The notes below the pieces were generated by a model. That model had not been told where the DNA came from and did no database searches. It saw only the letters and a program-made list of their open reading frames with translations. DNA of 531 nucleotides from Escherichia coli (lineage in GTDB: Bacteria > Pseudomonadota > Gammaproteobacteria > Enterobacterales > Enterobacteriaceae), in NCBI RefSeq assembly GCF_003334335.1, contig NZ_QOWQ01000174.1. The stretch is one strand, 5' to 3'. Below, piece by piece: positions 1 through 531 of the stretch; the first letter of the stretch is position 1, and the number at the start of each line of letters is the position of its first letter. A program made the translations under genes and the position numbers.

Positions 1-45
1 CCCGTTGCTGAAAAAGAAAGCATCAGGCGATTAGCAGGGTATCAG

Positions 46-132
46 TTACCCGTTGAAATTTTTAAATACCTCACAATTCAGGCGGTTGACTGTTGTCTGG
101 TTTGCGGGGAGTTTGTTAAAAGAAACTGGCAT
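46..132 (-). CDS. Candidate small ORF (28 aa, MPVSFNKLPANQTTVNRLNCEVFKNFNG) with a strong SD
   Basis: On the - strand: SD AGGGGGA (145->139), 6-nt spacer, ATG (132->130), stop TAA (48->46). Spacing and SD strength are good, but the peptide is short, has no recognisable family features, and I see no clear promoter. Confidence 0.2.
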   Translation of the reverse strand: MPVSFNKLPANQTTVNRLNCEVFKNFNG

Positions 133-140
133 GGTGAATC

Positions 141-157
141 CCCCTGTGCGGAGGGGC
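141..157. repeat. GC-rich palindromic 17-mer CCCCTGTGCGGAGGGGC, copy 1 of 2
   Basis: 15 of 17 positions identical to 277-293 (CCCCTCTCCGGAGGGGC), which forms the + terminator stem. Both copies are self-complementary hairpins. Confidence 0.4.
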
Positions 158-206
158 AATCAGCAACTGGTGTTTTGTCACCGACCCTTATCCTTTCTGT
201 GCGGGT

Positions 207-530
207 TCAGGTGCTGATACTGAACTCACCGGGAGGCACCCGGCACCATGCAATGGCACATAGCGCCACTCTCCAGCCCCTCTCCGGAGGGGCTTTCTTA
301 TGGACAAAAAAAGCCCGCGCTGGGAGACGCGGGCGGCAAGGAATAAACAACAAAACGTGAAGTAATATTTCAGCTGGCGAATAATATCCGACAGTAATCA
401 CTCTGCGCAATAGCGCGGCCTTTTTCGTATTGCGGGCTGTAGTCTTCCTCCTGCCATTGTCCTGTAACTTCCGGACTTCAGCCCGTTCCCTCATCTGACT
501 CACAACATTATCCCGACCGGGAGGATTCAT
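207..530 (-). CDS. Hypothetical ORF (107 aa) from the six-frame track; doubtful as a full-length gene
   Basis: Open frame from ATG 530-528 to TGA 209-207. The N-terminal ~55 codons (530 to ~365) are basic and protein-like (MNPPGRDNVVSQMRERAEVRKLQDNGRRKTTARNTKKAALLRR...). The frame then runs through the - strand terminator (334-304) and the + strand terminator hairpin before reaching a stop, and it is antisense to the + ORF. Its RBS would lie outside the window. Confidence 0.2.
   Translation of the reverse strand: MNPPGRDNVVSQMRERAEVRKLQDNGRRKTTARNTKKAALLRRVITVGYYSPAEILLHVLLFIPCRPRLPARAFFVHKKAPPERGWRVALCAIAWCRVPPGEFSIST
275..300 (+). terminator. Rho-independent (intrinsic) terminator, + strand
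   Basis: Stem 275-282 AGCCCCTC pairs with 287-294 GAGGGGCT (8 bp, 6 G:C), tetraloop TCCG 283-286, followed by T-rich tail TTTCTTA 294-300. Sequence downstream of the same hairpin on the - strand is not T-rich, so the orientation is +. Confidence 0.6.
277..293. repeat. GC-rich palindromic 17-mer CCCCTCTCCGGAGGGGC, copy 2 of 2 (coincides with the + terminator stem)
   Basis: 15 of 17 positions identical to 141-157. Confidence 0.4.
304..334 (-). terminator. Rho-independent (intrinsic) terminator, - strand
   Basis: Stem 313-319 GCCCGCG pairs with 328-334 CGCGGGC (7 bp, all G:C or C:G), 8-nt loop 320-327. On the + strand it is preceded by A7 (306-312), so on the - strand the transcript reads GCCCGCG-UCUCCCAG-CGCGGGC-UUUUUUU-GU. 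Downstream on the + strand (GGCAAGGAATAAAC) is not U-rich. Confidence 0.7.
304..380 (-). ncRNA. Candidate small RNA on the - strand ending at the - terminator; 5' end undefined
   Basis: On the - strand a U-rich stretch (CUUCACGUUUUGUUGUUUAUUCCUUGCC, about 362->335) directly precedes the terminator hairpin with U7. This resembles the 3' module of Hfq-dependent sRNAs. A weak promoter-like pair lies upstream on the - strand: TTGCGC (410->405), 18-bp spacer, TATTAT (386->381). Confidence 0.25.
519..528 (+). promoter_or_regulatory. Shine-Dalgarno / ribosome-binding site for a + strand gene starting at the right edge
   Basis: GGGAGGA at 519-525, a near-consensus SD, then spacer TTC and ATG at 529-531. 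If the true start is the first codon beyond the window, the spacer is 6 nt, which is also well placed. Confidence 0.45.
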
Positions 531-531
531 G
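529..531 (+). CDS. Possible start codon of a downstream + strand gene truncated by the window end; product unknown
   Basis: ATG at 529-531 lies 3 nt after the SD GGGAGGA. Only the start codon is inside the window, so no protein evidence is available. The same CATG palindrome also provides the ATG of the - strand ORF 207..530. Confidence 0.3.

Follow-up and report, generated by a model that had tools for sequence, protein, structure and literature searches.

Facing terminators upstream of nanS-p in an Escherichia coli lambdoid prophage are very probably the 3′ ends of a convergent pair of Hfq-binding small RNA genes

The window, the whole 531-nt stretch of Escherichia coli DNA analysed here, recurs at 100% identity in several E. 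coli chromosomes and in Escherichia phage PhiR5_1. In annotated records the gene order is antiterminator Q, tRNA genes, a terB-family gene, a DUF3927-family gene (tciB-like; named tciB in phage JLK-2012), the window, nanS-p (annotated at L001 6529–8511 and L002 3529–5496) and holin/lysis genes. The window is assigned to the late region of an E. coli lambdoid prophage of the Stx-phage type, directly after the moron slot and downstream of Q/PR′. The moron slot after PR′ is the place of stx in toxin phages. All annotated genes from Q to the lysis genes are co-directional on the + strand, including the DUF3927/tciB-like gene immediately upstream, which overturns the picture of outward-facing flanking genes drawn in an earlier note on this DNA. 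The coordinates of the features discussed below are collected in Table 1.

Table 1. Features of the 531-nt window, numbered from its first nucleotide. L001 is an annotated record of the locus and L005 the Sakai Sp4 locus.
Feature	Positions	Strand	Details
3′ end of upstream moron gene (DUF3927 family/tciB-like)	1–34	+	TAG stop 32–34; RefSeq CDS L001 5870–6034
STnc100 sRNA gene (Rfam RF02076)	100–305	+	cmscan 143.2 bits, gathering score 47, E 1e-33
Intrinsic terminator of STnc100	275–302	+	stem 275–282/287–294, loop 283–286, U-rich tail
Intrinsic terminator of − strand sRNA	306–334	−	stem 334–327/320–313, loop 326–321, U7 at 312–306
Predicted short (~70 nt) sRNA, 'type B'/EcOnc08-type	306–375	−	U/G-rich 5′ part CACGUUUUGUUGUUUAUUCCUUGCC before terminator
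Target of Northern probe EcOnc08/21/42	380–414	−	AATAATATCCGACAGTAATCACTCTGCGCAATAGC, exact 35-nt match to window + strand
Predicted sigma-70 promoter of short − strand sRNA	381–410	−	−35 TTGCGC (410–405), 18-nt spacer, −10 TATTAT (386–381)
EcOnc21 Hfq-peak equivalent	386–471	−	Sakai 1180016–1180101 mapped through L005
Conserved hairpin CTGCGCAATAGCGCGG, then CCTTTTT	403–425	+	terminator-like; carries −35 of − strand promoter
Second − strand promoter-like site	−10 507–512; −35 535–530 (partly beyond window)	−	−10 GATAAT, −35 ATGTCA; L001 6535–6507, consensus match only
nanS-p/SASA-family sialate O-acetylesterase start	519–531	+	Shine–Dalgarno GGGAGG 519–524, ATG 529–531

Two strong, opposed terminators a few nucleotides apart had been placed by the earlier note at 275–300 (+) and 304–334 (−), and both the sequence and a consensus scan locate them there, with 4–5 nt between their tails. 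At each site a GC-rich stem-loop is followed by a U tract, as expected of a rho-independent terminator. The + hairpin (275–294, AGCCCCTC-TCCG-GAGGGGCT as DNA, then TTCTTAT) has an 8-bp stem with six GC pairs, the loop UCCG and the tail UUCUUAU; the − hairpin (334–313, GCCCGCGT-CTCCCA-GCGCGGGC, then seven U) has an 8-bp stem with seven GC pairs and a 6-nt loop. The U tract is the stronger at the − site (U7), the + site having the weaker tail UUUCUUAU. Calculation of the folding energies, which the note had proposed as a check, gave −17.3 kcal/mol for the + hairpin (z −3.0; equalled by one of 200 shuffles) and −16.9 kcal/mol for the − hairpin (z −3.6; equalled by none of 200), both markedly more stable than shuffled sequences, and the consensus scan returned four terminator-like sites in the window, where shuffles gave 0.8 ± 0.9. 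On the + strand an A tract precedes the 313–334 hairpin and no U tract follows it, so that it can serve as a terminator for − strand (leftward) transcription only. In the Rfam STnc100 model the + hairpin is the final helix, and in other STnc100 copies the sequence of the terminator stem differs with pairing kept. For the − terminator, 95.3% of the cells in the helix are paired across 16 distinct homologues, with changes on both sides in three of the eight pairs and a covariation score reached by none of 500 shuffles, figures obtained from an alignment that was fitted to the model and is therefore biased towards structure.

Open reading frames of 107 aa (−), 61 aa (+) and 32 aa (+) span the terminator interval, two − strand ORFs match PHROG families of unknown function, and hypothetical proteins are sometimes called at the interval, across STnc100, in RefSeq records, all as would be expected if the interval encoded small proteins on either strand and the hairpins were incidental. 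We regard this as highly improbable. The ORFs contain both terminators; the PHROG matches extend over only 25–30 residues of 40- and 59-residue profiles and lie over conserved non-coding DNA; relative to 14 of the 15 other variants of the 395–531 block, the window has an extra base at 488 that breaks the 107-aa frame; third-position bias is weak, with 13 variable sites against 8 and 8; and the 32-aa ORF, whose start lies in STnc100, shows no sequence conservation between the window and Sp5. With terminators inside the ORFs, a frame-breaking indel and a weak codon-position bias, the small-protein genes suggested by the earlier note find no support. The PHROG-matching ORFs are those at 399–488 (−) and 46–159 (−), and the corresponding families, phrog_31368 and phrog_27294, were probably built from ORF calls over conserved non-coding DNA.

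The RNA that ends at the + terminator is STnc100. The Rfam model was matched end to end (positions 1–206 of 206), with a score above the gathering threshold over the full model and a terminal GC-rich hairpin with a U tail. Its counterparts in strain Sakai are EcOnc05 (Sp4), EcOnc27/sRNA103 (Sp5) and EcOnc06 (Sp17). The Hfq peak of EcOnc05 and its probe fall inside the STnc100 element, Sp4 being 92% identical to the window over 59–531, and the EcOnc27 probe of Tree et al. (2014) falls inside the Sp5 STnc100. Northern sizes of the Sakai copies are ~177–247 nt (~222 nt for EcOnc05 and ~235/247 nt for EcOnc27, whose 247-nt form is Hfq-dependent), which, by analogy, would place the 5′ end of the window RNA between about positions 55 and 125. 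The − strand Shine–Dalgarno and ATG at 145→130, previously read as a translation start, is no gene start, and lies antisense, inside the conserved 5′ hairpin region of STnc100.

Alternatively, the + terminator could be the operon terminator of the terB/DUF3927 moron genes, STnc100 then being a long structured 3′ UTR, possibly processed into an sRNA, rather than an independent gene. No sigma-70 promoter passes the consensus scan of the window upstream of position 100, the Sakai Northern sizes of 222–247 nt exceed the 206-nt model, and those for Sp5 would leave only about 30 nt between stx2B and the 5′ end, all of which would suit such an arrangement; a long 3′ UTR was also allowed by the earlier note. 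We nevertheless consider it unlikely, since STnc100 recurs at this place in all the related loci that were retrieved, after upstream genes as varied as stx2B, tRNAs, tciB and a membrane protein, and so behaves as a self-contained module, and since it was recovered in Sakai as a discrete Hfq-bound RNA. Even as a processed 3′ UTR, its terminator would still mark an sRNA 3′ end, the biogenesis of the RNA being changed and not its identity.

Within STnc100, the 5′ hairpin CCCCTGTGCGGAGGGGC (141–157) is an 88% direct repeat of the element's own terminator hairpin CCCCTCTCCGGAGGGGC (277–293), a likeness that suggests an internal duplication. Positions 228–236 carry ACCGGGAGG, identical to the nanS-p Shine–Dalgarno region at 516–524, and positions 135–151 carry UGAAUCCCCC, 76% complementary to GGAGGAUUCA at the nanS-p start (513–529). 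Pairing of STnc100 with the nanS-p ribosome-binding site was considered and rejected: the best duplex between the whole RNAs lacked significance (z −1.2) and involved another segment.

On the opposite strand, the cassette that ends at the − terminator (window 300–402) is 99% identical over 103 nt to Sakai Sp4 (L005 2431–2533). Table S2 of Tree et al. (2014) lists two Sp4 Hfq-crosslinking peaks here, EcOnc08 (1179938–1180010, −) and EcOnc21 (1180016–1180101, −), together with a ~271-nt Northern band for EcOnc08/EcOnc21 and a homologue, EcOnc42, that lies 3′ of stx1 in Sp15. Mapped through L005, with zero offset between Sakai genome versions at the Sp4 locus as checked by placing the EcOnc05 probe, the EcOnc08 peak corresponds to window 308–380. 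The published probe for EcOnc08/21/42 matches the + strand of the window and hence detects the − strand RNA. Both the Sakai loci and this probe identify the window RNA with EcOnc08/21/42, so that, by sequence match, the − terminator is the end of a published Hfq-bound RNA of this type; Hfq binding and Northern detection apply to the near-identical Sakai copies and would extend to the window by that identity. The earlier note was right in taking the terminators to end small non-coding transcripts rather than the flanking genes, the transcripts being STnc100, whose model starts at position 100, on the + strand and the EcOnc08/21/42-type RNA on the − strand. Its phrase 'unannotated small RNAs' holds for the small RNAs and is half true as to annotation, STnc100 being in Rfam and the pair having been published in 2014. 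Of 5426 complete E. coli genomes, 992 (about 18%) carry the − cassette, in up to six copies each.

Comparison of related loci revealed two kinds of cassette in this slot, type A (AsxR, AgvB and EcOnc03) and type B (the window, Sp4, TL-2011a and several Stx2a phages, with diverged forms in vB_EcoS-611R1, an Stx1a phage and IMG/VR contigs). A right-hand block, CTGCGCA..GCGCGG, is common to both types and supplies TTGCGC on the − strand. In the AsxR and AgvB loci this −35 is followed at the same 18-nt spacing by the −10 element (TTGCGC-18-TAAAAT), and all diverged type-B copies, L011, L012 and L080 among them, share the −10 TATTAT of the window. The RACE-mapped 5′ ends of AsxR and AgvB lie six bases after the −10; the same rule applied to type B would put the RNA start at window 375, and the conserved promoter is therefore predicted to yield a − strand RNA of about 70 nt, although TTGCGC-18-TATTAT scores below the threshold of the consensus scan and is a candidate promoter by inference only. 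The right edge of the EcOnc08 Hfq peak (~380) agrees with the predicted 5′ end. We collected 18 distinct type-B variants with the same layout, and a model of the type-B RNA, R1, scores 101.5 bits at the window. Among 13 aligned variants, CUUCACG and UUCCUUGCC are conserved and the U/G-rich stretch between them varies.

Like AsxR and AgvB, then, the − strand gene is convergent with STnc100 and has TTGCGC, an 18-nt spacer and a −10 element. The Rfam models of AsxR (RF02703) and AgvB (RF02702), behind which stands a conserved 3′ region of ~42 nt (GUAUCUCAUGC.AUUGCCCGAACCCA.UCGGGC), gave no match in the window at E ≤ 1 while both matched their own loci, and model R1 gave no match to AsxR or AgvB. 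The functional analogy rests, therefore, on position and promoter and not on homology of the RNA body: the type-B RNA is a positional and promoter analogue of AsxR/AgvB, not a member of either family. Its U/G-rich 5′ part resembles GcvB R1 by eye, and pairing with AgvB, AsxR, GcvB or STnc100 was tried and discarded as unsupported (z −1.3 to +0.2), none of the duplex energies being better than those of dinucleotide shuffles. Identity of the − strand RNA with PasA was likewise rejected, given that PasA lies about 2.2 kb from PasD2, with the esterase gene between them.

The published RNA of ~271 nt is much longer than the predicted one of ~70 nt, and its probe lies upstream of the predicted start at 375. 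A 3′ end at 306 plus 271 nt places the 5′ end near 576, inside nanS-p, where a scan found no convincing promoter. The region of the EcOnc21 peak would belong to a longer transcript of the − strand that runs antisense to the 5′ UTR of nanS-p. The second promoter-like site, ATGTCA-17-GATAAT, predicts a start near 500 and an RNA of about 195 nt; pointing leftwards, it overlaps both the ribosome-binding site and the start codon of nanS-p, and it could drive the longer antisense RNA and interfere with nanS-p expression. The hairpin at 403–425 folds with −9.1 kcal/mol (z −1.6), lies about 100 nt to the right of the terminator pair and is conserved in AsxR/AgvB-type and type-B loci.

A leftward promoter-like site across the nanS-p start, a long (~271 nt) RNA as the sole Northern evidence, and a 2021 review that calls the reason for the dyad arrangement unclear would all be compatible with the − hairpin being an insulator against spurious antisense transcription from the nanS-p region into STnc100 and the moron/toxin genes. 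This seems quite improbable to us. AsxR and AgvB, which occupy the same position, have been proven to function as sRNAs, and the EcOnc08 Hfq peak sits on the terminator-proximal 70 nt. Moreover, diverged cassettes keep the −35/−10 geometry, CUUCACG and UUCCUUGCC with a variable segment between the motifs, and conserved motifs around a variable segment are typical of an sRNA with a seed.

The two terminators are thus, very probably, the 3′ ends of a convergent pair of Hfq-binding sRNA genes in the late operon of a lambdoid prophage. The genes are oppositely oriented, with 3′ ends facing each other at ~302 (+) and ~306 (−), and the dyad sits just upstream of nanS-p and the lysis genes. Tree et al. 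(2014) reported that the site downstream of PR′ 'carried convergent sRNA genes', with EcOnc02 (AsxR)/EcOnc27 3′ of stx2B as the example and similar pairs in Sp3, Sp4, Sp9, Sp10, Sp11, Sp15 and Sp17, and the 2021 review describes 'dyads of Hfq-binding sRNAs' in at least eight Sakai prophages. The dyad of the window has the location they describe, between a moron CDS downstream of Q/PR′ and the conserved phage ORF that follows. The arrangement is already known and not new, since the convergent pair appeared in print in 2014 and Rfam curates the + partner as a family.

Among the known dyads, the Sp4 pair EcOnc05/EcOnc08–EcOnc21 belongs to the same locus type, with both Hfq peaks falling on the two RNAs and the published probe exact in the window; it differs in that the Sp4 copy follows tRNA genes whereas the window copy follows terB/DUF3927, and in that the STnc100 body of the window is ~15 nt longer (a 206-nt match against 191 nt in Sp4). 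In the Stx2 phage Sp5, AsxR/EcOnc27 (sRNA103), 3′ of stx2B, occupies the same position upstream of nanS-p with the same STnc100 partner, which is followed after 2 nt by the convergent AsxR, likewise back-to-back, and the two loci have in common the downstream block and the −35 TTGCGC with an 18-nt spacer for the − gene. However, the body of the − strand RNA is unrelated to AsxR by covariance-model search in both directions, and AsxR is a 54-nt sponge of FnrS whereas the window RNA is predicted at ~70 nt with a U/G-rich 5′ part. AsxR and AgvB are anti-sRNAs that are unusually short (51–60 nt) and sequester core-genome sRNA. In Sp10 and Sp17, AgvB/EcOnc06 is convergent with an STnc100 copy and the terminators abut, as in the window, but AgvB carries a CA-rich anti-GcvB sequence whereas the − strand RNA of the window is U/G-rich; predicted pairing between this RNA and AgvB was no better than in shuffled controls. 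PasD1 and PasD2 of EPEC E2348/69 are reported to be structurally related to STnc100 (Pearl Mizrahi, 2021; Zhu, Shabalina & Storz, 2026 preprint), and PasD2 adjoins the sialate esterase gene, which separates it from the holin/lysozyme operon. The window element differs from both in scoring as STnc100 proper, and PasA is found across the esterase gene from PasD2.

STnc100 is closed by its GC-rich hairpin and U-rich tail, and the EcOnc08/21/42-type RNA by its hairpin and U7. How such a locus may work we infer from what is generally known of Hfq-dependent sRNAs and lambdoid late transcription. Each of the two 3′ ends would double as the usual Hfq-binding site; longer − strand transcripts antisense to the nanS-p leader would also stop at the − terminator. 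In the lysogen, each RNA would be made from its own promoter or by processing, and each terminator would prevent its transcript from extending through the partner gene in antisense. In the lytic phase, RNA polymerase that arrives from PR′ modified by Q would read through the + terminator, so that nanS-p and the lysis genes are expressed. The analogy with AsxR and AgvB makes a trans-acting, Hfq-dependent role as regulator or sponge the most likely one for the − strand RNA, which might instead act in cis on the nanS-p leader.

Tentatively, and at slightly less than even confidence, the − strand gene can be viewed as a distinct third sRNA family in the 'anti-sRNA' slot: an Hfq-dependent RNA of ~70 nt with a conserved frame of CUUCACG ... 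UUCCUUGCC plus terminator around a short, variable U/G-rich segment, expressed from the AsxR/AgvB promoter position. So read, the RNA may act on a core-genome RNA or on the nanS-p/late transcript. Type B is absent from Rfam, and the 2021 review gives the targets of EcOnc42/21/08 as unknown. Dyads of this kind adjoin Shiga toxin genes and other morons, and their characterized members rewire core regulation, through FnrS and haem use in the case of AsxR and through GcvB and amino-acid uptake in that of AgvB; a statistical link has been drawn between SNPs in the STnc100/EcOnc27 partner and severe disease. No new principle comes from the window; what is gained is that two sRNA genes can be correctly annotated in a place that genome records leave empty or fill with spurious ORFs, and the remaining interest lies in the type-B partner, a widespread, uncharacterized variant outside Rfam.

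The composition of the slot also varies between phages. STnc100 occurs with no recognizable convergent partner in Stx2a_WGPS4 (L013 842–970) and JLK-2012 (L014 873–1000), and the JLK-2012 copy ends differently at its 3′ side, in sequence that matches the EcOnc04 probe. In Sp3-type loci (L006, L014), a weak STnc100-like match ends at a hairpin homologous to that at 403–425, with a longer T run. Cassettes can be mosaic: positions 5891–5959 of L017 join a type-B1 − cassette to an STnc100 3′ end of the type found in the Stx1a phage L012, and contig L016 holds two different type-B cassettes (6949–7017 and 9688–9766). The cassettes in L017 and L016 suggest recombination at the junction between the two terminators.
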